Positions 5,667-35,280 of a DNA stretch of 35,280 bases are shown here, piece by piece. The notes under the pieces are model-generated. The model ran no database searches. It was not told where the DNA came from and was given only the letters and a program-made list of their open reading frames with translations. The stretch covers positions 1 to 35,280 of the IMG/VR virus record IMGVR_UViG_3300025018_000335. One strand, written 5' to 3'. The position numbers were made by a program, and so were the translations under genes. Source of the DNA: a virus. Lineage: Duplodnaviria > Caudoviricetes. Every line of letters starts with the position of its first letter. The first letter of the stretch is position 1.

Positions 5667-5917
5667 GTATTTTCTTTTTATAAAAACAGTTCTCCCCCCA
5701 TAGGGTGCTAGGGTGGGCTAGTTGGTTGTGAATATAAGTAGTGTTTAGTTTGTAGCTCTTGTCCAGTGTCATAACCCCATTACATTTATGCTCCATACTC
5801 CCCAATACTTATTTATAATAACAAACATTGGGGGGAACGGAGTACGCTGTGCTACCTGTAAGAAGCGTTTATTTAGAGGTGCTCCTTAAATCTCTAGTGA
5901 CTTATATTATTTGTACT

Positions 5918-6030
5918 AAAAAACCAATCTGTAGAAAGAAAGTTGCTATAATGCTCTCACGGGGCATCGGAGTAAAACTCCCTTTCTCTCTACACATTGG
6001 TCTTTGAATCGTGAGAATAATTTATAGCAA
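5918..6030 (-). ncRNA. Structured leader RNA with interleaved inverted repeats A-B-A'-B' followed by a U-tract
   Basis: A 6010-6030 pairs with 5943-5961; B 5982-6003 pairs with 5921-5942; G-U pairs favour the minus strand. Confidence 0.6.
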
Positions 6031-6037
6031 TATGCAT

Positions 6038-6066
6038 ATTATAGCAAACCGCAAATCATAAGTCAA
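6038..6066 (-). promoter_or_regulatory. Sigma70-type promoter TTGACT-17-TATAAT
   Basis: agtcaa 6061-6066, attata 6038-6043, 17-bp spacer. Confidence 0.85.
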
Positions 6067-6088
6067 GCATAAATAACCATTTTCTCTA

Positions 6089-6117
6089 TTGACACATAAA
6101 GACATTAAGTGTATAGT
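6089..6117 (+). promoter_or_regulatory. Divergent sigma70-type promoter TTGACA-17-TATAGT
   Basis: ttgaca 6089-6094, tatagt 6112-6117. Confidence 0.8.
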
Positions 6118-6123
6118 ATATAT

Positions 6124-6207
6124 GTCGACAGTCTTCCTTTACGGAAGTGAAGCGTGGTATCGTATTAACTACTAGAAAAGCACCCCATTTGCAGTGAGGT
6201 GCTTTTT
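6124..6207 (+). ncRNA. Putative ~85-nt small RNA
   Basis: Bounded by a near-consensus promoter and an intrinsic terminator; 5' hairpin CTTCC...GGAAG. Confidence 0.55.
6176..6207. terminator. Bidirectional intrinsic terminator
   Basis: AAAAGCACC...GGTGCTTTTT. Confidence 0.75.
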
Positions 6208-6257
6208 GCTTTAGTTGTAGTTTATATTTACCATTTGCATATTATATCATAGAAACC

Positions 6258-6276
6258 AAAAACCGCCAAAGCGGTT
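6258..6276 (-). terminator. Intrinsic terminator
   Basis: Minus strand AACCGC TTTG GCGGTT TTT. Confidence 0.65.
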
Positions 6277-6416
6277 GTGGTGGACTGATGTATCAAAGGT
6301 AAAATGGATGTTTTTTGAATTATCTGTCTCTTTGCGTAATGAAGCCTCTATACGGGTTCAGCAACATTTGATGTAGCATAAGCTATCGTGCCGTAACCAC
6401 CACAATTATACAATAC

Positions 6417-6523
6417 AAACAAAAACAACGCAACCGACCTGCGTTGTTTGTTTTGGAGGACATTGTATGCTGTATAAACACAGCCTACAAGGCTCTAGAA
6501 CGCCCTGTGGGCTGTTTTTATAC
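6417..6523 (-). terminator. Two tandem hairpins/terminators after the lysis genes
   Basis: AACAACGCA...TGCGTTGTT and GTATAAA-CACAGCC...GGCTGTTTTTATAC. Confidence 0.6.
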
Positions 6524-8286: not shown

Positions 8287-8640
8287 GATTTTCTCCGTTT
8301 TGTGAAAGAACTATCTAGCCGACAACAAGTGTCAGCTAACAACTGCCTCCGAACTTACGCTCGGCTAGATAATTCCTTAAATTGTAAAAGAACCTTCTTT
8401 AGTGGGGAACGACGACTGGCTTTGTTGCATTTCTTCTACTGGTGTAAAAACACCTCACTCCCCACAATCTATGGTATGCACACACTGGGTGGTTTTGTGG
8501 TCGTCATTGAAAAGTTGCCTCATCCCCCATTAAAGAACATTCCCTTTTACCCCTAACGAGCCTGTGTCTCTCGGGGTCTCTGGTTTGTTTACATCCTAGA
8601 CCCTTTTTTGTAAACCTAACAGCTGGCACTCGTTACGGGT

Positions 8641-8673
8641 AAAAGAGAGCCGATATTTTACTTGCTCGGCTCT
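8641..8673 (-). terminator. Intrinsic terminator after the metallophosphoesterase
   Basis: AGAGCCGA...TCGGCTCT CTTTT. Confidence 0.65.
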
Positions 8674-8680
8674 TACAAGT

Positions 8681-19104: not shown

Positions 19105-19587
19105 TTAACTAAATGCAAAATCGTATTGTAATGTAACTGAGTCTCCATTCACTACATTAAGTGCTGAAAACACTTGGTGTCCTAGCATTGTTCCTGATGA
19201 ACTTGCGTTGAAAGCACCAATCTCAGTAACTGCCTTTGTTCCTGTTACAGGAAAAGTCTTTGCTAGTCGTAGTGTGTCATTTGTTACTGTTGTTGTTGTT
19301 TGTGAAACAGTTGCCGCCGCACGAGCAAGCCCCGAGTCTGTTATCTCAGTTTCAAGTGTTGTATCTGTCGCCGCTACCGCTGTCGTACCTGTTCCTACTG
19401 CTAGGAAAGTAAATGCTGTCTTTGAGCCTGTGTTTCCAACAAGTCCACTAATTTCTGCAAGTGAAGCGTTGGTTATCACATTGTCTTTTTCACGCACATC
19501 TTTCACATTTCCTTCACTGTCTCGTACTTCAATCTTGAAGTGACCTTTAATTTTTAATTTATCCTTCATATTATTCGTTATTATCAA
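19105..19587 (-). CDS. Tail/fibre-attachment structural protein
   Basis: LAVGTGTTAVAATDTTLETEI and VTEIGAFNASSSGTML motifs. Confidence 0.7.
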   Translation of the reverse strand: MIITNNMKDKLKIKGHFKIEVRDSEGNVKDVREKDNVITNASLAEISGLVGNTGSKTAFTFLAVGTGTTAVAATDTTLETEITDSGLARAAATVSQTTTTVTNDTLRLAKTFPVTGTKAVTEIGAFNASSSGTMLGHQVFSALNVVNGDSVTLQYDFAFS

Positions 19588-20284
19588 ATTGTACTAATAA
19601 TCTATTCGACCTGTCTCTGTCTCTATCTGAGATATGAGCCAGAAAATTGTTTGTTAATTCTTCCCTTCGCACTCTCAACGGGTCTAATCTATCTGGTCTG
19701 AATATACCCGCCCATTCTTCTGCTACTTCGTGAGCAATCACCTGGTCACCTAATCCTCCCATTCCCACATCTGTTGTTGTCGTACTTGCATCAAATTCGT
19801 TTATCTCTCGGTTATATGTGAGTTTTATACCTGCTGTAGTAGTAACCTGTGCAGATGATGGTGCTGGATAGAGGATGATTGACTCGTTTTCTAGTCTGTA
19901 ATATTCGGGTAATCCTTTTACTTCTCTAAACTCGTCAAGTGCTACATCTATGTTTGTATCATCTATTGGGTCTACTACGAACCAGTTTCCCGCACTATCT
20001 TTTACTTCTACTCTCCTTATTCCCATTGCATCTGTTGGTAGTGTATAGTCTGCTTGGTCGTCTACTAGAGTAGTAGTCGCTATTGGGAAAGTGGTATATC
20101 CTCCATCGTTAAAATCCCATGCATCTTGTTGCTTCCATACCTTTACTGCAAGGTTATATTTTGCGGTGTTTGTTGCTCTCGAAAGATCCGCAAGAGGAAA
20201 CTCGCTAGAGGAAATGCCACCGAGTAAGTACCATACATAGTGAGCAAGGCTATTATGTGTATTTGATGTATCGTTAAACTTCAT
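19571..20284 (-). CDS. Head-tail adaptor (tubular protein A-like)
   Basis: Follows portal; TLVDDQADYTLPTD...GLPEYY...IILYPAP. Confidence 0.7.
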   Translation of the reverse strand: MKFNDTSNTHNSLAHYVWYLLGGISSSEFPLADLSRATNTAKYNLAVKVWKQQDAWDFNDGGYTTFPIATTTLVDDQADYTLPTDAMGIRRVEVKDSAGNWFVVDPIDDTNIDVALDEFREVKGLPEYYRLENESIILYPAPSSAQVTTTAGIKLTYNREINEFDASTTTTDVGMGGLGDQVIAHEVAEEWAGIFRPDRLDPLRVRREELTNNFLAHISDRDRDRSNRLLVQFDNNE

Positions 20285-20285
20285 A

Positions 20286-21995
20286 TTATTCTTGCCCTAC
20301 GGGTGCTACTACTTGTAATTGTTGCGTACCTCCCCCCATTGCCATTCCTGTCGAAAGTCCAAGTAATCCTATTGGATTTGTACCTGCCAAAGACAATATC
20401 TGATTAAGTACCTTCTCTGCTCTAGGGTCTTGCTGTTCTGATAATACTGTGTAAAGACTTGTAAGGGTTGTAAGGTCAGTTGCGGTGTTGGAGTTTTCTC
20501 CAGTAATAACAATCTTTATCTTTGTTTTTATGTTGTCATAGAATTTGTCGGGTAATTCTGGAAATCTCTCATCTCTCTGTCGTAGTTTTTCCATTATCTT
20601 CATTCTCTCTGCTTCAACATGTTGAGGTAATGGATATACTCCATTTTTCTTTACGAACTTATCCATCTCCTTTTTAAGGATTGCGTTTGTCATTAGAAGG
20701 TCAAACTTATTCATTTCATCTGCTTCTGCGGTAAACGAGAATATGTGTCCTTTTCTTTTCTTCTTCTTAAACTCAGGGATTATAAAGTCTTCTATAATTC
20801 CAGTAATAAATAGTCCTAGCTTCTCTCTCTTGAAATTAAAGTATGAGTCTGTCGCATTTGAAAGTATTGCACCGAGTCTAAATGGTGTCCCTGATGGTAG
20901 CGACTCTCCTGTGTTTACTTCAAATGTAAATGATGTTCCGTCTGAGTTGTTGATTATTCTCTGATACAGTGCATTGAACTGAGCGAGGTTTCTTTCAGCC
21001 ATTGGTATCTCTGTGAAATCTCTTGATTCAATAACATCTCCGTTCCTCTTTGTTCTAAATAGGTTCTTTGGTACATTGGGGTCTGATGATCTGAATAGTT
21101 TTCTTGTATTCCACTCCAGTGCTTTTCTTTCCTTGTTGTTTACATCGTTATAGAACTCTTGTGCTTCAAAGTTTTCTTCTACTACACCAACACCAATTCC
21201 TCTGTGGTCTATACTCTCCCATGACAAAGACCTGTAAGGAAATACATCTAATTCTTGCTTGTGTAGTATGATTGTTGGTACTTCTTTCTTCTTCTTTTGC
21301 AGTTCTCTGTCAAAACCTGCACAAATAACAACACCAGGACTAAGTGTATCACCACCTCCGTCTACCAAGTCTCTCTCTTCGTAGTATCCATATCTTTCTA
21401 TAACTCCAATAGTTGCAATATCATTACTTTTGTAGAGTGCGAGTACCTCCTCAACTGCATCTTTATCCCACCCTAATTCTTCTGCTGTATTCTGAAACTC
21501 CTCTATTGTGTAGAGATGTTCTTCGTGCACCCATGGTGAGTCCTCAATGTGTAACTGAGGGTCATATCGAAGGTTATGTAATGAAACAACTTTCGGCTTT
21601 CCTTTTACATTCTTTACTACCACCTCTCCGTATTTTGGATATCTTTCTACAACATCGTTAAGAAACTCTCCAAAGTTCTCCTCCTTCATGAACTGTAAAA
21701 GTTCTTTCTCAAGAAACCACGCTTGAATATCTGAACCACCCTCTTCTGCTTGTACTTGAATGTCTTTTGTGTCAATATCCACACTCTTTTGTGAGGTCTT
21801 GACAGGTCTTTTATTTATGTTGAAAAATATCTTCTTGAAACCGTCAGAATCTCTTTCACCACCCATAAATTTGGAATTGTAGTACAACTCCGTCTTTCTT
21901 AGTGTACGAGGAAAATCAAACTCAAGACCCTCCGCTATAGTAACGGGTGTCTCAAAAATCTCTTTCTCTCTTTCTATATATCCTCTTATTTGCAT
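20286..21995 (-). CDS. Portal protein (podovirus-type)
   Basis: 569 aa; FFNINK...KYGEVVVK...GIGVVE...AQEFYN; precedes the adaptor. Confidence 0.7.
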   Translation of the reverse strand: MQIRGYIEREKEIFETPVTIAEGLEFDFPRTLRKTELYYNSKFMGGERDSDGFKKIFFNINKRPVKTSQKSVDIDTKDIQVQAEEGGSDIQAWFLEKELLQFMKEENFGEFLNDVVERYPKYGEVVVKNVKGKPKVVSLHNLRYDPQLHIEDSPWVHEEHLYTIEEFQNTAEELGWDKDAVEEVLALYKSNDIATIGVIERYGYYEERDLVDGGGDTLSPGVVICAGFDRELQKKKKEVPTIILHKQELDVFPYRSLSWESIDHRGIGVGVVEENFEAQEFYNDVNNKERKALEWNTRKLFRSSDPNVPKNLFRTKRNGDVIESRDFTEIPMAERNLAQFNALYQRIINNSDGTSFTFEVNTGESLPSGTPFRLGAILSNATDSYFNFKREKLGLFITGIIEDFIIPEFKKKKRKGHIFSFTAEADEMNKFDLLMTNAILKKEMDKFVKKNGVYPLPQHVEAERMKIMEKLRQRDERFPELPDKFYDNIKTKIKIVITGENSNTATDLTTLTSLYTVLSEQQDPRAEKVLNQILSLAGTNPIGLLGLSTGMAMGGGTQQLQVVAPVGQE

Positions 21996-21998
21996 AAT

Positions 21999-22066
21999 AA
22001 AAAAAGGCGACTATTTGTCGCCCACAGTATTGCTGTTGGGTTATTATTAAACTTATATATATTATA
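21999..22066 (-). promoter_or_regulatory. Promoter plus leader attenuator (bulged hairpin overlapping a terminator), copy 1
   Basis: TGCTATAAT; CCCA-A-CAG-CAATA-CTG-TGGG; GGCGAC...GTCGCC-T7. Confidence 0.75.
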
Positions 22067-22074
22067 GCACACTT

Positions 22075-22989
22075 TTACAAATGCAACAAATTTTGCAATC
22101 TTTTAAGTCTGTGGTCGTATGTGTGATTGTCTTTTGTGTGCTTCCACCCAGCAAGTATCATCTTTTTACGCTCTGATTCATTCTTTTTATAGAAATCCAT
22201 CTTTTCTTGCAACTCCTCAATGCTATCCCAGTATACTCGGACTGTTTCAGGGTATAATTCTTCATGCCCTGGAAACCTTTTGGTTAAAGGAAAGCCAAAA
22301 TATCCAGGTATTACCCAATATCTATTGGATACATACTTCTCTATGTCCCAAAAGTGTGAAATATCTAGAGTAAACTGCGCGTTTCCATAGATTTTAGGCA
22401 TATTCCAGTATATTTCTGCTCTTTGCTCTGGTGTATTGCCATCTATACGCTTTAATTTCATGTTACTTTCTAGGTGTTGGATTATCGCTCCCCTTTGTGC
22501 GAACGCTTTACCAAAACCTTTAGCACCAATAAATACAAAATATTCTTTGAATGAGTCATCTACGACAGGTTCATCGACAGGATCTACTGCGAGGGGTAAA
22601 AACTCAGGCGTCATGTTAAATTGTTGTTTTATGAAGTCTTTTTGTCCATCATTTGATACAAAAAATCTATCTACTGTTTCACTTAAGTCATTTATATCTT
22701 GACCAGTTCTCTCATCTCTTAGATCTCCATACCACATACAGATTATAGCATTAGGTAGTGCCTCACGAATGCGCTCTCGGGCTTGTGTATCTCTCATCAT
22801 GTCTATAAGCCCATAAACTATGACATCAGGTTTACTTGCGATTATATCATTGACATAATTTGGATTGTAACGACATGAAACAAAAGACCAATCCCATCCA
22901 CTTCTTGTAAGGGCACTTTTAAGACCTGACCAGTGTGTGCAGGCTTGTTCGTGTATTGGTTTATCTGCACCCACTATTGTTATTCGCAT
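22075..22989 (-). CDS. GT-B glycosyltransferase (CgeB/YkvP-like)
   Basis: WYGD, FIG, YVSNRYW...G, C-terminal HTYDHR. Confidence 0.8.
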   Translation of the reverse strand: MRITIVGADKPIHEQACTHWSGLKSALTRSGWDWSFVSCRYNPNYVNDIIASKPDVIVYGLIDMMRDTQARERIREALPNAIICMWYGDLRDERTGQDINDLSETVDRFFVSNDGQKDFIKQQFNMTPEFLPLAVDPVDEPVVDDSFKEYFVFIGAKGFGKAFAQRGAIIQHLESNMKLKRIDGNTPEQRAEIYWNMPKIYGNAQFTLDISHFWDIEKYVSNRYWVIPGYFGFPLTKRFPGHEELYPETVRVYWDSIEELQEKMDFYKKNESERKKMILAGWKHTKDNHTYDHRLKRLQNLLHL

Positions 22990-23429
22990 TTTATTAAAAC
23001 AGCGGTTATTATCCCGTTGTCGTTAGTTTTAAGGCTTCTAATCTCCCAACCCTTAAATCCGTACACACTTCCATACAACTTATACTCTCTTGAATCTTTG
23101 TTAAAGTAGGAAAACATATCAGGACTAAACCTTCTACAGTCATAGGGGTCTTTGTAGGCATTGACATGAAGTGCGTGTGGTACAACCACCCTCATAAACC
23201 CTCCTTCTTTAAGAACACGCCAACACTCATTCATTGCAAACAGTAAATGCTCGTTTTCTTGTATCTGCTCGAGTACACCACTAATATATATCTCCTCTAC
23301 TGTGTTGTTTTTAAAAGGGAGTTTATCTGTTCGTATGTCTAAATACTCATCCGCCCTTACTTCCTTTGAGACATCTATGTTTGTATATCCTTGCAGATAT
23401 TCACGCCCACATCCAATGTTCAGTCTCAT
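22980..23429 (-). CDS. SAM-dependent methyltransferase (type 11-like)
   Basis: LNIGCG...NID, LPF, RVLKEGG. Confidence 0.85.
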   Translation of the reverse strand: MRLNIGCGREYLQGYTNIDVSKEVRADEYLDIRTDKLPFKNNTVEEIYISGVLEQIQENEHLLFAMNECWRVLKEGGFMRVVVPHALHVNAYKDPYDCRRFSPDMFSYFNKDSREYKLYGSVYGFKGWEIRSLKTNDNGIITAVLIKCE

Positions 23430-24109
23430 TCTGTTTTTTTAGTAAATAATAACTTTGCTCTAATCTTATCCAAGTCACGATTTATCTCTCCTCTTTCATG
23501 AGATGCTTTGAATGAAGCAGAACCCACATGTTCTACGAGTACATCTCTACGCATTATTGCACCGCCTGTTCTCTTTGCTCTATGTGCCCATTCACTGTCT
23601 TGTCCGTAGATATAAAAGTCTTCATCAAAATCACCCAACTCCTCATAGAGTGTTTTCTTAAACAAAAAACAATAACCCGACCATATACCCGTGTTTACGG
23701 TGGGATCAGGATAAGGAGTTGCGTGTGATACTTGTTGATTAGCACCCCCTGGTGCAGAAGAAACGGGTATTACAAGCCCCGTCTCATCTATACTCTCCAT
23801 CATTCGTGTAAGCCAGCAGGGGTCTGTATCGGGTACAAAAGCATCAGAATCTATGAGCATTACATAATCACAAGTGGTCTCTTTGACCAACTTATTCCAT
23901 ATTCTTGAGGTATTAGCAGTGTTTAATCTGTTATCGTAGATAGTTAGCTTGAAAGGATGTTTGGTGTTGTCAATAATGCGACTGATAGCCTTCTTTTCCA
24001 CCTCTTCGTCTTTGTACTTGAGCATTATAATCTCCACACGCTTAGTTTCCTGCTCTGTTTTCATTGGAATCTGTGACAATTCCTTTAATTTTTCCATTTC
24101 TTCCTTCAT
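23426..24109 (-). CDS. GT2-family glycosyltransferase
   Basis: YDN, LIDSD (DxD), SGYCFL, GDFDEDFYIYGQD, VEHVGSAS. Confidence 0.85.
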   Translation of the reverse strand: MKEEMEKLKELSQIPMKTEQETKRVEIIMLKYKDEEVEKKAISRIIDNTKHPFKLTIYDNRLNTANTSRIWNKLVKETTCDYVMLIDSDAFVPDTDPCWLTRMMESIDETGLVIPVSSAPGGANQQVSHATPYPDPTVNTGIWSGYCFLFKKTLYEELGDFDEDFYIYGQDSEWAHRAKRTGGAIMRRDVLVEHVGSASFKASHERGEINRDLDKIRAKLLFTKKTE

Positions 24110-24486
24110 TTTAGGTCGTACATTAGTATTACATTCTGTCTGTGAGAATATTTGTTGATAACCTCAAATCCACAGTTCAAAAACATGGTCTCTACATAGT
24201 AATCATTCAATGTTCTTGCAAGGAGTATATTGCTTTCCTGGAGACCTCTTTCTTCTTGTACTACTTTTTGTATAAGTTTTGTGGCATAGCCTTTTTTCTT
24301 ATACTCATCTGGTGTAAAGAGGTGAAAAAGTATACTCACACCATCAAAAGCGAGAACATAGCAGTGCGATTTGTTGTCAATATCATACTTTCGCAACTTA
24401 AAATACGGATTGTCAATAGACATTAGTTTCTCTATCAACATTCCCCACTTTTCATTCCAATTAGGACTCTTTAGAAACTCTTGCAT
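24106..24486 (-). CDS. GNAT-family acetyltransferase
   Basis: LFTPDEYKKKGYATKLI acetyl-CoA motif A; FLNCGF. Confidence 0.75.
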   Translation of the reverse strand: MQEFLKSPNWNEKWGMLIEKLMSIDNPYFKLRKYDIDNKSHCYVLAFDGVSILFHLFTPDEYKKKGYATKLIQKVVQEERGLQESNILLARTLNDYYVETMFLNCGFEVINKYSHRQNVILMYDLK

Positions 24487-25490
24487 ATTGTTATGATCCT
24501 ATATACATCAGCAAGTGTCAAATCGTGGTGTAGAGGTACATGAAACATCTTATCTTCTATTGCATCCATGTATAGATATTTACCACGACCACAAAAGATG
24601 GTGTATTTGTCATTCCTGTAGTGGTGCGTTCCTGCCTCATATCCTGCTTCTTTGAGTTCCTTTACTATCTCATCTTTCTGGTGGTGTATGTAGGTAGCCA
24701 TCCAAACCCCTGCTTGAAAGCCATGTTCTTTATATAAATCTCTATATGTCCGTCTTCTTTGTATTACCCAGTCTATGGCGTGCAAGTTTCCAAGTGCAAT
24801 CGCCGCACTAATATCATTCATGTGGTATTTATAGCCAATCTCTGTGAGGTCTGTGTCTCCACACCGCTGTTTTTCTTCCCTGTCGTACCCAAACCACCTC
24901 AATCTCTTTGCCTTTTCGTGATCTTCCTTCCTTTTACATATTAAAATACCCCCATCGCCTGCCGTAAGTGTCTTGATTGCTTGTAATGATACGCAAGTAA
25001 AGTCTGCCTTACCCCAGTTCTCTGAACCTACCGCTTGTGCGGCGTCTTCAATCACGGTAATTCCATGCTCTGATGCTATTTCTAGTACCTCATCTAACCC
25101 CTCATTGCTACCTCCAAAGTGTACGAAGACAATTGCCTTAGTTTTTGGTGTTATCTTCGCTTTAATGTCCTCTGTATAGGCGTTGAGAGACTCACCAGCG
25201 TCTGCAAACACTATCTTCGCACCAATCCTCGCAAGAGGTATGTTAGTTGCAGTACAGGTCAATACAGGCGTTATTACTTCATCTCCTTTTTGTATACCTG
25301 CAAGTTCATATGCCAATTCTAGTGCAGATGTTCCTGAGTTTAGGGCACATACATTTTCAAAGCCAAATTTCTTTCCAAACTCCTCCTCAAATCTTTTTGC
25401 TACGGGACCTTCTGCTAGTTGTGTGCCCATTAGCACCTTTAATGCATAAAGTCTTGCTCTCCAGCTGATGTATGGTTTAAATAGTTTCAT
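24471..25490 (-). CDS. DegT/DnrJ/EryC1/StrS PLP-dependent sugar aminotransferase
   Basis: NSGTSAL, GDEVIT, IEDAAQA, SLQAIKTLTAGDGG. Confidence 0.93.
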   Translation of the reverse strand: MKLFKPYISWRARLYALKVLMGTQLAEGPVAKRFEEEFGKKFGFENVCALNSGTSALELAYELAGIQKGDEVITPVLTCTATNIPLARIGAKIVFADAGESLNAYTEDIKAKITPKTKAIVFVHFGGSNEGLDEVLEIASEHGITVIEDAAQAVGSENWGKADFTCVSLQAIKTLTAGDGGILICKRKEDHEKAKRLRWFGYDREEKQRCGDTDLTEIGYKYHMNDISAAIALGNLHAIDWVIQRRRTYRDLYKEHGFQAGVWMATYIHHQKDEIVKELKEAGYEAGTHHYRNDKYTIFCGRGKYLYMDAIEDKMFHVPLHHDLTLADVYRIITICKSF

Positions 25491-26397
25491 TGAAGTATTC
25501 AGTTATCCCTTCCTCAAAATTATATAATGGTTTCCACCCTAATGCAAACAGTCTTGATGCATCCATTTGATACTTTAAGTCCATGCCAGGTCTATCACCT
25601 TTAGATGTGGGTACTTCCTTCCCTGTTATGTCCTCAACTTTCTTTATAAGTTTACTTACTGTGAAGCCAGCATTGAGCGTAACATTGTATGTCCGATTTC
25701 CTCTTTCCATAATAAGTTCCATGACTTGCGGTATATTCTTTACATAGATATATTCACGATACCCTCTTCCTCCTTCATGTAATGGTACAACATACTTACC
25801 TTCTACCGCCTCTTTTATTGCAGGTAATATCTTTCTTTTGTCTTGTCGTGGTCCAAACACATTACAGAAGCGTGTTTCTGCTGTCTTATTACGCAACTCA
25901 GGATAAGAGTTGTCAAATGCTATTCTCATTAGTGAGCCTACAGCCTTAGAGCAAGAGTAGGGGTTCTTGGGAAATATAATATCAGTTTCTTGTTTAAGAA
26001 CCTCACACTCCCCATATACCTCATCGGTTGATACATATACAAACTTCTTGATGTCTGGTAGTCTTCTTGCCGCCTCAAATGCATTGAGATTAGCAAGTAT
26101 ATTTGACTGTAGTGTTTCGTATGAGAACTTAATAGAAAAGTCCACATCAGATATGGCTGCTGCATGAATAAGATAGTCTGGGTTTTCCTCGAGAATAATC
26201 TTTATTACAGAAGGATCAGACATATCATACTTATAGTATTTGAAACTTCCGTCTATTATCTCAGGATGAGAGCCTACACTCTCATTGTCAATAACAACAA
26301 CCTCATATCCTTTAGATACAAAGTATTCAGTAACATGGGAGAAGATAAAGCCTAGTCCACCTGTTATGAGTATTTTAGATGAGGGATTCAATGTCAT
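25477..26397 (-). CDS. NDP-glucose 4,6-dehydratase (RmlB-like extended SDR)
   Basis: ITGGLGFI, HAAA, STDEVYG, YSCSK, NVFGPRQ. Confidence 0.9.
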   Translation of the reverse strand: MTLNPSSKILITGGLGFIFSHVTEYFVSKGYEVVVIDNESVGSHPEIIDGSFKYYKYDMSDPSVIKIILEENPDYLIHAAAISDVDFSIKFSYETLQSNILANLNAFEAARRLPDIKKFVYVSTDEVYGECEVLKQETDIIFPKNPYSCSKAVGSLMRIAFDNSYPELRNKTAETRFCNVFGPRQDKRKILPAIKEAVEGKYVVPLHEGGRGYREYIYVKNIPQVMELIMERGNRTYNVTLNAGFTVSKLIKKVEDITGKEVPTSKGDRPGMDLKYQMDASRLFALGWKPLYNFEEGITEYFNETI

Positions 26398-27250
26398 CGG
26401 TTCTTCCTATTAGTACCCAGTCTGGGTGTATTTTTAATGTGTCGTCTACGCTACGAACGGGTATGTCTATTATTTGTCCATCGGTCTTTTGTATAAATGC
26501 AAACACTTCTTTTTGTGTCTTTATCCTGTCTTTCTTTGGTTTTTGTGCAGTGTCTTCTACGAATTTCTGTACTTCTATTCTTATTTTATCTAAGTCTAAC
26601 TTATCTTCTTTAATCTCTGCTGCGAGATCATCATAGTATGTCTTTGCAATAAACTGTGCTTTGGGGTCATACTTTGCATATCTCTCAACCTTCTTTTGTC
26701 TGTCTTTCTTTTCCTTAAGTCCATAGTGGAGTACAAAGTAGGGAGAGTAATATCCATAGTGCCATACCCATTCAGGTGCTAGTCCACAATGTAAAGCCTT
26801 TTGTGGAAAATCTAACCCCTTTTCTGGCTTAAACCTCCATGCTCGTATATTCCAAAAACTATGTGCAACTGAATATCCATCCCCCCATAAATCTACGATG
26901 TAGAAATAAAAAGCATCAAACGGACTCTTGCTTAACTCCTCAATATCTTGTCGTGTCATATTAGGGTCAAATACCTCATCCATATCAAGACATACACACA
27001 TATCAGGATTCAGTTTTGCTATATGATTTTTTACAAGGTCTTGTTTTATCTTCCACTGTGTCTTACCCCACTCTCTATTATCTTCAACTAACTTAAAACC
27101 GTACTTGTTTATTAGGTTGCGTTCTTTGTCTGTGATGTTGTTACCACATATAACAGTTTCGTCACATAGACGCTTAAACTCTTTTAATGTGGCTTCCATA
27201 TATCTGTCTGCTTCACCACCACCACAAATACCGTAACCTACTACTCTCAT
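26375..27250 (-). CDS. GT2-like glycosyltransferase with C-terminal extension
   Basis: CLDMDE (DxD), LHCG, VLHYG; start MRVVGY at 27250 gives an ATGA overlap. Confidence 0.8.
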   Translation of the reverse strand: MRVVGYGICGGGEADRYMEATLKEFKRLCDETVICGNNITDKERNLINKYGFKLVEDNREWGKTQWKIKQDLVKNHIAKLNPDMCVCLDMDEVFDPNMTRQDIEELSKSPFDAFYFYIVDLWGDGYSVAHSFWNIRAWRFKPEKGLDFPQKALHCGLAPEWVWHYGYYSPYFVLHYGLKEKKDRQKKVERYAKYDPKAQFIAKTYYDDLAAEIKEDKLDLDKIRIEVQKFVEDTAQKPKKDRIKTQKEVFAFIQKTDGQIIDIPVRSVDDTLKIHPDWVLIGRTDDIESLI

Positions 27251-27462
27251 AGTGACTTTAGATATTTTAGCCAATCCTCTGTCGTTTCTTTCACCTTAGT
27301 CTGTTGGTCAATCTGTACTTGATAGTTTTTGTATGCATCTCCACCTTCTTCTAGTGTAGCCTTTATACCTTCCATGTGTCCTAAAACAAGGTCAAGCCCT
27401 ATCAGCTTCTCCTCTGCACCGTCTATGTTAATTTGTATTATCTCCTTTTTTGTTTTTGCCAT
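27247..27462 (-). CDS. Hypothetical protein
   Basis: ORF track; coupled to neighbours. Confidence 0.7.
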   Translation of the reverse strand: MAKTKKEIIQINIDGAEEKLIGLDLVLGHMEGIKATLEEGGDAYKNYQVQIDQQTKVKETTEDWLKYLKSL

Positions 27463-29270: not shown

Positions 29271-29873
29271 CGTTATGTAATCTCTTGTTACCAAGAGTGT
29301 CGGACTGTCGCTTCACCCGTTATATAGGTGTTGGTTCGCTCAGTCTCTCACGGTGCAATATGTCTCTGTGATTTAGTTCTCGGATTTTTGTATAAAGTTC
29401 TTCACGCTTCTCATTTGTGTGATGTTTCAACGGCAATCCTTTATTAACCGTCTTAATGAACTCTAACAAAATGGTAGCTTGTTCTTGTTTAATGCGTAGA
29501 AAAGGTTTGATGGCTCTAATAAACTTTTCTAGTTGATAGACACTTTTCAGTGACCAACAATAAGATGTTTTACTATTACCCTTACCTAATCGCATTTCAA
29601 AACTACCCCCGTAACTGTCATATAACCACTGTATGATTGCTTTGTCGGTATTTGCAATCTTGATGACTGGTTTGAAATAGTGGGCATTTGCACTACTCCA
29701 GTCTTTTTTTTCACCCTTCTTTATTTTTAAGATTCCGAGATAGCCTTCGCCATCTACGAACCCTGCTAAATAAGGTGCAGTGGTTTTTGACATCAGCGAC
29801 ATACGCTTCCGCCCTGTTGCCCCATTTGGGGTTCCAAGTCAATTAGAACCAATTTTAGATACCCAAAGTTTCT
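29271..29873 (-). mobile_element. Group I intron (603 nt) in the major capsid gene
   Basis: P1 GAUACCU/GGGUAUC with U-G at the 5' splice site; terminal G; P10 AAACUU/AAGUUU; P3 UUGGUUC/GAACCAA; P7 GACUG/CAGUC; P9 CUCUUG-GUAA-CAAGAG; splicing restores the frame (MIP-EVW). Confidence 0.92.
29320..29802 (-). CDS. Intron-encoded single-motif LAGLIDADG homing endonuclease
   Basis: YLAGFVDGEGY; IKPFLRIKQEQA. Confidence 0.92.
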   Translation of the reverse strand: MSLMSKTTAPYLAGFVDGEGYLGILKIKKGEKKDWSSANAHYFKPVIKIANTDKAIIQWLYDSYGGSFEMRLGKGNSKTSYCWSLKSVYQLEKFIRAIKPFLRIKQEQATILLEFIKTVNKGLPLKHHTNEKREELYTKIRELNHRDILHRERLSEPTPI

Positions 29874-29933
29874 AGGTATCATTGCTGCCAAGTCTGATGC
29901 TGTATATGCGTCTGTGGGACTTGAAAATGCCAT
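29874..29933 (-). CDS. Major capsid protein, exon 1 (20 aa)
   Basis: MAFSSPTDAYTASDLAAMIP; starts 12 nt after the scaffold stop. Confidence 0.88.
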
Positions 29934-30565: not shown

Positions 30566-30793
30566 CTACTCGTAAGAGTCCATTGCTTGTTCTTGCTCTG
30601 GTTTCTGTAGTCTTTTAATAGTGTTTATTTTGTCTTCTAGCCAGTAAAGATGCATTTTGTATGCTTTCACATTAGCTATATCATCATCTGGTATTTGGTC
30701 AGGGCTCTGTAATGCATTCAGGTCATGCTCATACCATTTAATGAGGTCGTCTCCATTTGTTAATGCTATTTTTCTTCGTTGTTCTGTATTCAT
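30566..30793 (-). CDS. Small head-module hypothetical protein
   Basis: ORF track; first gene of the head operon. Confidence 0.7.
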   Translation of the reverse strand: MNTEQRRKIALTNGDDLIKWYEHDLNALQSPDQIPDDDIANVKAYKMHLYWLEDKINTIKRLQKPEQEQAMDSYE

Positions 30794-30797
30794 AAAT

Positions 30798-30856
30798 AAA
30801 AAGCACGCTTTGTGTGGCGTGCCCCAGTATTGCTGTGAGCTATTAAATATATTATA
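30798..30856 (-). promoter_or_regulatory. Promoter plus leader attenuator (bulged hairpin overlapping a terminator), copy 2
   Basis: TGGTATAAT; GCTC-A-CAG-CAATA-CTG-GGGC; GCACGC...GCGTGC-T5. Confidence 0.75.
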
Positions 30857-30866
30857 CCATACTTTC

Positions 30867-31019
30867 CTATTCTATGTCTAGGAATTTCTTATCTAAGTTT
30901 ATCTTTTCTCTTTTCCATATAGCATATTGCACATCAGATATCTTAGAAATCTCTAACTTATCATGCTGTGCCATGTTTCTAAGTAACAGTAAGATTTTTC
31001 TTTCGTGCTCATTCAGCAT
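30867..31019 (-). CDS. 50-aa hypothetical protein
   Basis: Read manually: MLNEHERKILLLLRNMAQHDKLEISKISDVQYAIWKREKINLDKKFLDIE. Confidence 0.6.
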   Translation of the reverse strand: MLNEHERKILLLLRNMAQHDKLEISKISDVQYAIWKREKINLDKKFLDIE

Positions 31020-32301
31020 CACCTAAATCATTATGTATATTCTCTCGAATACTCAATAGTCTTTTAACAGGATCATTAGTCTCCTTGCTTATCATTCTTG
31101 CTGGTAAATCCCACACTGCTAGAGCAAGTGACATAATCCTGTCGTCATGGACTCCTTCTGGTACTTGTACATTTATTCTACCACGCTCTGTCATTGTGTA
31201 CTGCATAGAGCGTAATTCATCAAGTAACCCTTCGTCATCTGCTGGTAAATATATCTGATTTTCGTTTATAAGTATTCGTAAGTTGTTCAATAGATCCATT
31301 CTAGATTTACTGGTGAACTTAAAAGACTCTATGTTTATACCCCTTGATAATAGGTCGTCATAAATAGGGTCGCCAAGACCTGTAGAATCAAGCCATACAA
31401 GCCCCTTATTGTATCTGTGGTAAAAAGCCTCAATCATTGACTTCTGCATTTGCCAATCTATCTGATTAAACCTTTCTTGTTGATACACCTGTCTCGTGTG
31501 CAGATTTATTGCTGTGAGTACGGTAAAGTCCTGATATTTTGCAAGGTCTACCCCTAGTCTAAACTTATGCCATGGTTCAATCTTATTATCGGGAAGATAC
31601 AAACACCTTTCTAGTCCAATAAAGAACTGACTAGCGCCTTCTACGAACTTACAGAAGTATTCTTGTTCAAATAAGTCTTTAGGCATTTGGGACTTCTCTT
31701 GCTCTAGTACCTTTACATCTATTGCTTTTGTGTCTTCTACAGTAAGCACTTGTGTAAAGCCACCAGCGTCTCTTACTTGCTGTAGTATCTTGTGCCCATG
31801 ATTCATACCTCTTGGAGTGAATACAAAGACCGCCCAGCCCCCATTTTCAGCCAATATAGGGCGTATTAAATCCCATGCTTTAGGGTTTTGTAGTGAATAC
31901 TCTGTGAATACACACCCTACAGGGTTAGTACCAACAATGCTATCTACCCTATCTGTACCGATTACCTGAATGATTGATCCATTTACTAATTCAATCTTTA
32001 ATTCAGTATCATTTTTCTTCGATAGTAGTTGTTTTGGAATATGGTCTATAAAAGATAATCCTGTTCTAGCGTCTATTCCATCCCATATAATCTTTTTACC
32101 CTGTGTATATGTTGGTGCAAAGTAATAATAAAGACCTTTGTTTTCAACAGCTTCTCTTACTATGTAATTCCATGAGGTTCTATCTTTGCCACTTCTTCTG
32201 TGCCATATAAGCACCGCTCTTTTAATACCAGAGTCCATTGCTTTCCAAAAAGGAAGTTGATAATCTCTTGGTTTATAGTTATGAGGTACTGTCGTCTCCA
32301 T
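31009..32301 (-). CDS. terL: Terminase large subunit
   Basis: PRDYQ, Walker A HRRSGKD, APTYTQ, FTPRG, nuclease LGVDLA...D, HDD. Confidence 0.95.
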   Translation of the reverse strand: METTVPHNYKPRDYQLPFWKAMDSGIKRAVLIWHRRSGKDRTSWNYIVREAVENKGLYYYFAPTYTQGKKIIWDGIDARTGLSFIDHIPKQLLSKKNDTELKIELVNGSIIQVIGTDRVDSIVGTNPVGCVFTEYSLQNPKAWDLIRPILAENGGWAVFVFTPRGMNHGHKILQQVRDAGGFTQVLTVEDTKAIDVKVLEQEKSQMPKDLFEQEYFCKFVEGASQFFIGLERCLYLPDNKIEPWHKFRLGVDLAKYQDFTVLTAINLHTRQVYQQERFNQIDWQMQKSMIEAFYHRYNKGLVWLDSTGLGDPIYDDLLSRGINIESFKFTSKSRMDLLNNLRILINENQIYLPADDEGLLDELRSMQYTMTERGRINVQVPEGVHDDRIMSLALAVWDLPARMISKETNDPVKRLLSIRENIHNDLGDAE

Positions 32302-32817: not shown

Positions 32818-33225
32818 TCAAAGCCCCTCACTACAAAACTGACAATATCCTAACTTTCCATTACCTGCAGACTTACTTCTTAAACTTATGTTACACGATA
32901 AACACCTTTCGTGTTGTCTTTTTAGTTTGTTTTTTATCTTGAGTGGCATTTTTCTTTGTTTCACAAGTCTTGTTTCTATTTCTTGGTCTGTAAACAATAA
33001 TCTACAATCTTTACAGGCTCTATTCTTTCTTCTTGCCTTAAGTTCATAGTCATTGCCACACATAGGACACTCTACTACTTCTACATTATGAATATCTTTT
33101 ATAATTCTTGCCTGTTGTATCTCTAAACCTGACATATATGCTGACTCTGCAACATCATAGACTTGATTGTATAGTAGAAATTGTTGTCTTTTATAGGTTT
33201 GAGAGTTTGTCATTATATTCGTCAA
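32818..33225 (-). CDS. Basic protein with four CxxC motifs (putative Zn-binding regulator)
   Basis: CPMC, CKDC, CLSC, CQFC. Confidence 0.65.
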   Translation of the reverse strand: MTNIMTNSQTYKRQQFLLYNQVYDVAESAYMSGLEIQQARIIKDIHNVEVVECPMCGNDYELKARRKNRACKDCRLLFTDQEIETRLVKQRKMPLKIKNKLKRQHERCLSCNISLRSKSAGNGKLGYCQFCSEGL

Positions 33226-34995: not shown

Positions 34996-35280
34996 TTAAT
35001 CTTCAATCTGAAAACCTAAAGCGTTTAGGAAATCAGATACTTGTTCTGTTTTTAGTTTGCTTGTTCCACCTCTACCCAAAAACCTTACATTTTGTAATTC
35101 AGCACCATAGAGGTTAGCATCACGGAGGTCAGCACCACGGAGGTCAGCATAACTGAGGTTAGCATCACGGAGGTCAGCACCACGGAGGTTAGCATAACTG
35201 AGGTTAGCATCACGGAGGTCAGCACCACGGAGGTCAGCATAACTGAGGTTAGCATCACCTTTCTCTTCAATAGCTTCTTT
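34996..35280 (-). CDS. Pentapeptide-repeat protein, 3' part (10 units)
   Basis: KEAIEEKGD(ANLSY-A[D/N]LRG-ADLRD)x3[40 protein letters not shown]. Confidence 0.85.
35069..35280. repeat. Terminal direct repeat / circular overlap, right copy
   Basis: Matches 1-167 plus one extra 45-bp block. Confidence 0.9.

Follow-up and report, generated by a model that had tools for sequence, protein, structure and literature searches.

Late genes of this phage are probably gated by a phage-encoded antiterminator composed of a protein and its cognate RNA, in which a 51-aa protein would bind a bulged hairpin and block the terminator that the hairpin overlaps. The window, meaning the whole stretch of DNA analysed here, is a virus record of 35,280 bases with an estimated completeness of 94%. 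The original prediction placed an RNA element in competition with a leader terminator ahead of virion operons, and it is supported by comparative data on covariation, co-occurrence and genome-specific cores. The comparative data also point to a specific phage protein, encoded at 30867-31022, as the candidate partner. From the sequence we infer promoter firing, a stop at the U-tracts, RNA binding by the protein, and the timing.

The two leader copies and their setting

The window encodes ninB-like and ninG-like proteins, terminase, a major head protein, a sugar-modification cluster, a portal-like protein, an SU10-type adaptor and fibre proteins. All genes around both leader copies lie on the minus strand, as do the leader features described below. 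Copy 1 heads the portal, adaptor and tail genes. The first gene behind it is the portal-like gene (20286-21995, minus strand, 569 aa), followed directly by the head-tail adaptor gene (19571-20284, minus strand) and then the tail genes. The portal-like assignment of this first gene agrees with the earlier reading: 3 of its 120 listed homologues carry PF23899, an SU10-type portal family, and the gene that follows has a match to SU10_adaptor (PF24175). Copy 2 heads a block comprised of a 75-aa ORF, a putative scaffold, the major capsid gene and sugar-modification genes.

Copy 1 has the architecture originally described, and its coordinates were confirmed: an extended -10, a bulged hairpin, an overlapping 6-bp terminator, U7 and the portal ATG. 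The extended -10 promoter-like site, TG-c-TATAAT at 22061-22069, is a consensus match only. Its TATAAT lies at 22066-22061 and is accompanied by a poor -35 (TTGTTG, 3/6), which is why the promoter scan did not list it. After a spacing of 20 nt comes the 20-nt hairpin CCCA-A-CAG-CAAUA-CUG-UGGG (22021-22040; core 22025-22036), with a lower stem of 4 bp, a bulged A, an upper stem of 3 bp and a 5-nt loop. The hairpin shares 2 nt, or 3 counting a G-U pair, with an intrinsic-terminator-like hairpin (21999-22022) that has 6 bp, a 5-nt loop and U7 and that ends 3 nt short of the portal ATG. The terminator stem GGCGAC/GUCGCC occupies 22022-22006 and is followed by seven U at 22005-21999, ATT, and the portal ATG at 21995.

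The second copy, which had been placed at 30798-30856, was confirmed as having an identical core with a different lower stem and terminator. Its promoter-like site, TAGACA-18-TATAAT with TG (30851-30880), obtained the top score in the promoter scan (11/12), and the -35 falls within the last codons of the small gene 30867-31022. The hairpin is GCUC-A-CAG-CAAUA-CUG-GGGC (30821-30840; core 30825-30836), and the intrinsic-terminator-like hairpin with U5 spans 30798-30822, with the stem GCACGC/GCGUGC at 30822-30803 and an ATG at 30793. Within the window, the 12-nt core has exact matches only at 22036-22025 and 30836-30825. By chance, a 12-mer was shared in 130 of 200,000 random pairs of window segments of equal lengths. 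The descriptor "bulged hairpin overlapping terminator", which was written from these same two examples, matched exactly two window sites, compared with one match in 30 shuffles. Rfam 15 gave no covariance-model match at the element in the window (E<=5) or in 13 relatives (E<=2), consistent with the earlier reading, which did not recognise the motif as a named family.

Several other features of the window were noted. Genes for glycosyltransferases, a nucleotide-sugar epimerase, a DegT aminotransferase, an acetyltransferase and a methyltransferase form a cluster at 22075-27274 (minus strand), inside the late region. This cluster is common in relatives too and possibly serves virion glycosylation. 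A LAGLIDADG/HNH-type endonuclease ORF (29320-29879, minus strand) lies just before the TTG-start major head ORF; the capsid gene may start near 29930, with a mobile intron interrupting it. Several promoter-like sites occur, along with terminator-like hairpins and long inverted repeats, in the long intergenic regions at 5806-6522 and 8287-8680, including divergent promoter-like sites near 5944-6066. Rfam matches in these two regions were sub-threshold only. Pentapeptide-repeat coding sequence is present at both record ends (1-335 and 34996-35280, minus strand), possibly one gene split at an assembly break.

Hairpin types and predicted folds in relatives

Portal relatives provided 183 loci, of which 23 were removed as truncated or at an edge, leaving 115 after merging at 85% identity. 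In many of these relatives a promoter, hairpin, terminator and ATG precede the portal gene. The expected conservation in related phages was therefore found for the layout, which recurs with a genome-specific core, but not for the exact core. An exact scan of viral contigs for the promoter, window core and U-tract returned 20 loci, none of which had the hairpin-terminator layout by eye. Exact pattern scans gave 14 loci for type A, comprising two records already in the set and 12 loci without leader context, and 10 loci for type B, none of them leaders. In type A, the form of the window, a 3-4-bp stem is followed by a bulged purine and a 3-bp stem, which an invariant G-C closes beneath a pentaloop; the window's loop is the most unusual among type A. 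Type B has a 4-bp stem, an A-rich 5x2 internal loop and a 3-bp stem.

Both types showed covariation. In the type A alignment (10 copies), 94% of cells are paired and six of seven pairs have a double-sided change, with a covariation score reached by 0 of 500 shuffles. In the type B alignment (15 copies), 98% of cells are paired and compensatory change is seen in six of seven pairs. The pair counts are inflated, because both alignments were built from examples chosen for structure. Between the two window copies, the lower stem differs by two double-sided changes and one C-G to U-G change. The claim that structure is kept while sequence changes thus holds both within the window and across the hairpin types of relatives. 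In type A, one pair is G-U in four cells and the bulge is one-sided, both of which favour an RNA element over a DNA palindrome.

The G-U pairs and the bulge also bear on a reading that we consider very improbable, in which another phage protein opens the gates by acting on DNA or RNA polymerase, the core being a DNA site. One example would be the product of a zinc-ribbon ORF (32818-33225, minus strand, 135 aa), which has two CxxC pairs and weak zinc-ribbon matches. Lambda pR'/tR' is a sigma70-type promoter that runs into a terminator before the late genes, and lambda Q acts at a DNA site at a fixed place in the promoter. The window resembles this in its sigma70-type promoter (a consensus match), its terminator before late genes and its nin-like genes upstream, and the zinc-ribbon ORF holds lambda Q's place after ninG. 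However, the window core lies at a variable distance, 24 and 14 nt behind the -10, and so has no fixed position, and the G-U pairs and one-sided bulge are kept. The ORF also had no phmmer match in 25 loci with the small gene (seven of them whole records, of varying completeness), nor in 111 related loci.

For the RNA element, the predicted default fold is the terminator, and forcing the hairpin costs ~2 kcal/mol in the window and 6-14 kcal/mol in six relatives' copies. In the predicted folds of the window only the lower stem competes with the terminator, and a 4-bp terminator remnant survives; the upper stem of copy 1 coexists with the terminator with a pair probability of 0.96. The claimed competition between hairpin and terminator is accordingly strong in relatives, where the two exclude each other, but partial in the window, where the overlap is 2-3 nt and the upper stem is compatible with the terminator.

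Covariance models of the two types were used to search phage DNA, as had been proposed, with a different outcome for each. Beyond its training set, the type B model detected five copies that sit in promoter-hairpin-terminator-ATG context, every one of them in a record with the small gene; its matches in records without that gene had no leader context. In 31 sources, the type A model gave no further copy with leader context. A search of sequencing runs found no RNA holder among those listed.

The main rival reading, which we judge unlikely, is that the protein-hairpin pair acts mainly on translation, as for Mu Com, with binding melting a stem that hides the start codon in an SD-less host. Between the end of the terminator stem and the ATG lie 10 nt in copy 1 and 9 nt in copy 2. 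An SD-like word precedes only 4 of 43 window genes and several genes appear leaderless, from which an SD-less host with sigma70-type promoters, for example one of the Patescibacteria, is suggested. Locus L176 and the portal copy of L056 keep the hairpin without a clear terminator. At L176 (1603-1645), a type A hairpin with the window's upper stem has no U-tract, and the end of a complementary stretch coincides with the portal AUG, pointing to a possible translational version. Against a mainly translational role, a G+C-rich stem and U run end most copies, and these would be needless for a translation block. Translational control at the adjacent start codon may nevertheless act alongside antitermination.

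A small gene associated with the leaders

The candidate hairpin-binding antiterminator is the 51-aa ORF at 30867-31022 (minus strand), directly after the terminase large subunit and beside copy 2. A leave-out profile built from 148 other sequences recovered this ORF at E=1e-7, and the next of 746 frames had E=1.9. The family spans 47-75 aa and 151 clusters at 50% identity, and an ORF of this size lies directly after terminase in most loci with a leader. Pfam, PHROGs, NCBIfam, PDB-sequence and Atlas gave no significant assignment for the family. The predicted model contains a helix-strand-strand core (H5-15, E22-27, E31-36; mean pLDDT 86), and fold searches with it returned no clear relative, the best Z being 3.1 for a MinE domain. 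DUF2292 has a helix-plus-strands shape that may resemble this predicted core, but PF10055 (DUF2292) gave no match over the cut-off in five records including the window, nor among family members. The best-kept positions of the family are E7, R15, E24, I25 and K/R40. The median net charge is 0, so the family is not notably basic, and there is no conserved Cys. The window's own protein forms a long, unplaced branch in the protein tree, and as a single-sequence query it had no match in 111 other loci. A locus search with one subfamily added a single locus, L207, and its leader is of type B.

The small gene co-occurs with the terminator. By automatic labels, 15 of 23 loci where the small gene is adjacent have a terminator before the portal ATG, versus 9 of 92 where it is not (p=1.3e-7). 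After hand correction, in which L058 was counted as having a terminator and L152, L173 and L196 were removed as spurious, the counts are 19/26 with the gene versus 3/89 without. L022, L024 and the window record are counted as gene-positive here because the gene sits elsewhere in the record. Each trait requires 16 changes on the portal tree (FastTree). Independent pairs on that tree went 8.5 the same way versus 0 the opposite way, of 12 (median p 0.008), and with automatic labels 7.2 versus 0, of 11 (median p 0.016). Of five terminator-less records searched, four of them with terminal repeats, none carried the small gene.

At the portal, a terminator is missing from seven of the 26 loci with the gene. 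Three of these, L056 and the records of L062 and L053 (the near-identical partner of L027), have a terminator at the adaptor instead; L176 keeps the hairpin without a U-tract, and the fragments L036, L050 and L157 show none. The three terminator-positive loci without the first family each have a different small ORF upstream. These ORFs (L188:9665-9853, L192:40-267 and L084:2449-2685) lie upstream of portal leaders and align with each other as a second unnamed small-protein family, whose profile comparison with the first family was not significant (probability 0.8%). L084 and L192 have hairpins of the form GCCC-(U)UA-stem-C-GGGC that overlap long terminators.

In portal relatives with neither the small gene nor the terminator, TTGCGG is present shortly before the ATG, 10-16 nt past a promoter-like -10. 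Copies are at L076:9986, L081:5855/11183/14371, L088:741/6096/9254, L095:1416/6767 and L101:9968/15483/18891, with up to three per locus, at the portal, the adaptor and a third gene. TTGCGG may be a parallel late-control motif.

It is distinctly unlikely that the leaders serve as passive, leaky attenuators or as targets of a host factor, with the hairpin only tuning read-through or protecting the 5' end and the small gene a passenger of the cassette. The two window folds differ by only ~2 kcal/mol, the gene adjoins the first leader in most loci, and the promoter often overlaps the end of the gene, all of which would fit such a passenger. However, the association persists at unlinked sites. For L022 and L024, which have a portal leader, the predicted gene was found elsewhere in the record (E 1e-18). 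Second leader copies are found at a distance of 5-13 kb from the portal, in most cases ahead of the adaptor gene. Adaptor hits numbered 37, or 33 after removal of two that were truncated and two directly after the portal, and a terminator was found at the adaptor in six of nine loci with the small gene versus 1 of 24 without (p=5e-4). The new information in this test is in the negatives, because the adaptor profile had been seeded with the six positives, which were already known. Inspection by eye added an adaptor terminator for L041 and L058, and the second copy of L052 precedes another gene. The sites of L022 and L024 and the adaptor site indicate that the association of leader and gene is not due to physical linkage alone.

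The cores themselves are genome-specific and track the protein tree, which a shared host factor would leave unexplained. Core identity is 11.5/12 within genomes versus a mean of 8.0/12 between them (permutation p=2e-4), and paired copies share 12, 12, 12 and 10 of the 12 core bases. The lower stem is unconserved within genomes (3.75/8). Five type A proteins form one branch (SH-aLRT 98), whereas their portals fall in two distant branches, and in 20 of 20 cases a protein and its nearest neighbour share the RNA type. The hairpin type follows the small protein rather than the portal.

Comparison with known regulators and proposed mechanism

The original prediction likened the element to BglG/LicT RAT elements. 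In PMC7430163, BglG, SacY, LicT and GlcT are described as acting locally through RAT RNA, an otherwise unstable hairpin that is stabilized by the protein and overlaps a terminator. The same source describes control of sugar operons, specificity that separates paralogous pairs, and contacts of LicT with two bulges. The logic of the window leaders is alike, as the hairpin overlaps the 5' arm of the terminator and the terminator is the predicted default fold, but membership in this family fails on the CAT domain, the PRD domains and the number of bulges. The CAT domain (PF03123) had no match in the window genome at E<=10, where controls were detected, and none in 16 family members; PRD domains had no match in 56 ORFs, and the protein is only 51 aa. 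Instead of two bulges, type A has one bulge and type B one 5x2 internal loop. The predicted regulator is also a stand-alone protein of ~50 aa, acting on phage virion genes instead of sugar operons.

Lambda Q and lambda N are a further comparison (PMC11658703). At lambda pR'/tR', a host-type promoter is shut by a terminator until a phage protein appears; Q and N both modify RNA polymerase processively, Q through a DNA site and N through a site in the RNA. In the window, by contrast, every operon starts with a separate hairpin that overlaps the terminator of that operon. The likeness to lambda N boxB is loose and lies in phage-specific loops, including purine-rich pentaloops in relatives. Mu Com, according to PMC6483171, is a small phage protein that binds a short cognate mom hairpin and switches on a late gene, as a zinc finger that activates translation. 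Com is a Cys4 zinc finger, whereas the window's 51-aa protein has no cysteine, and the competing fold here is a terminator. No Q-family protein matched in the 56 ORFs, and neither the Q nor the Com family had a match at the thresholds used. Judged from these comparisons, the predicted system works like BglG/LicT-RAT, fills lambda Q's place, and gave no match in the protein-family tests for CAT-PRD, Com and DUF2292.

In the proposed antitermination mechanism, host RNA polymerase would start at both promoters and stop after about 50 nt. The 51-aa protein would bind the bulge and loop as they emerge from the nascent RNA and hold the lower stem, so that the terminator remnant is too small to work. 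The small gene is located ahead of both gates, so its product would come from the terminase transcript. The late genes would be read only after the small protein has built up. Read-through would be local, with one hairpin per terminator, and the same terminators would also end transcripts coming from upstream.

A literature search that covered subscription journals sparsely found no description of the system. Within the supplementary material of PMC10690425, six files gave no match, and three others may hold similar motifs. We lean towards regarding this as an undescribed class of minimal phage antiterminators for late genes, in which a ~50-aa protein (at least 151 clusters at 50% identity) and a cognate hairpin of 20-27 nt form co-evolving orthogonal pairs. 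Each pair would be gained or lost together, and a second small-protein family or leaderless promoters could take its place. If true, this would explain how many uncultured small phages delay their virion genes while using host-type promoters, without Q, N or a sigma factor. It would also give an unnamed protein family a candidate function testable by reporter assay, and natural sets of cognate proteins and hairpins of such size would be useful as orthogonal RNA-level switches.
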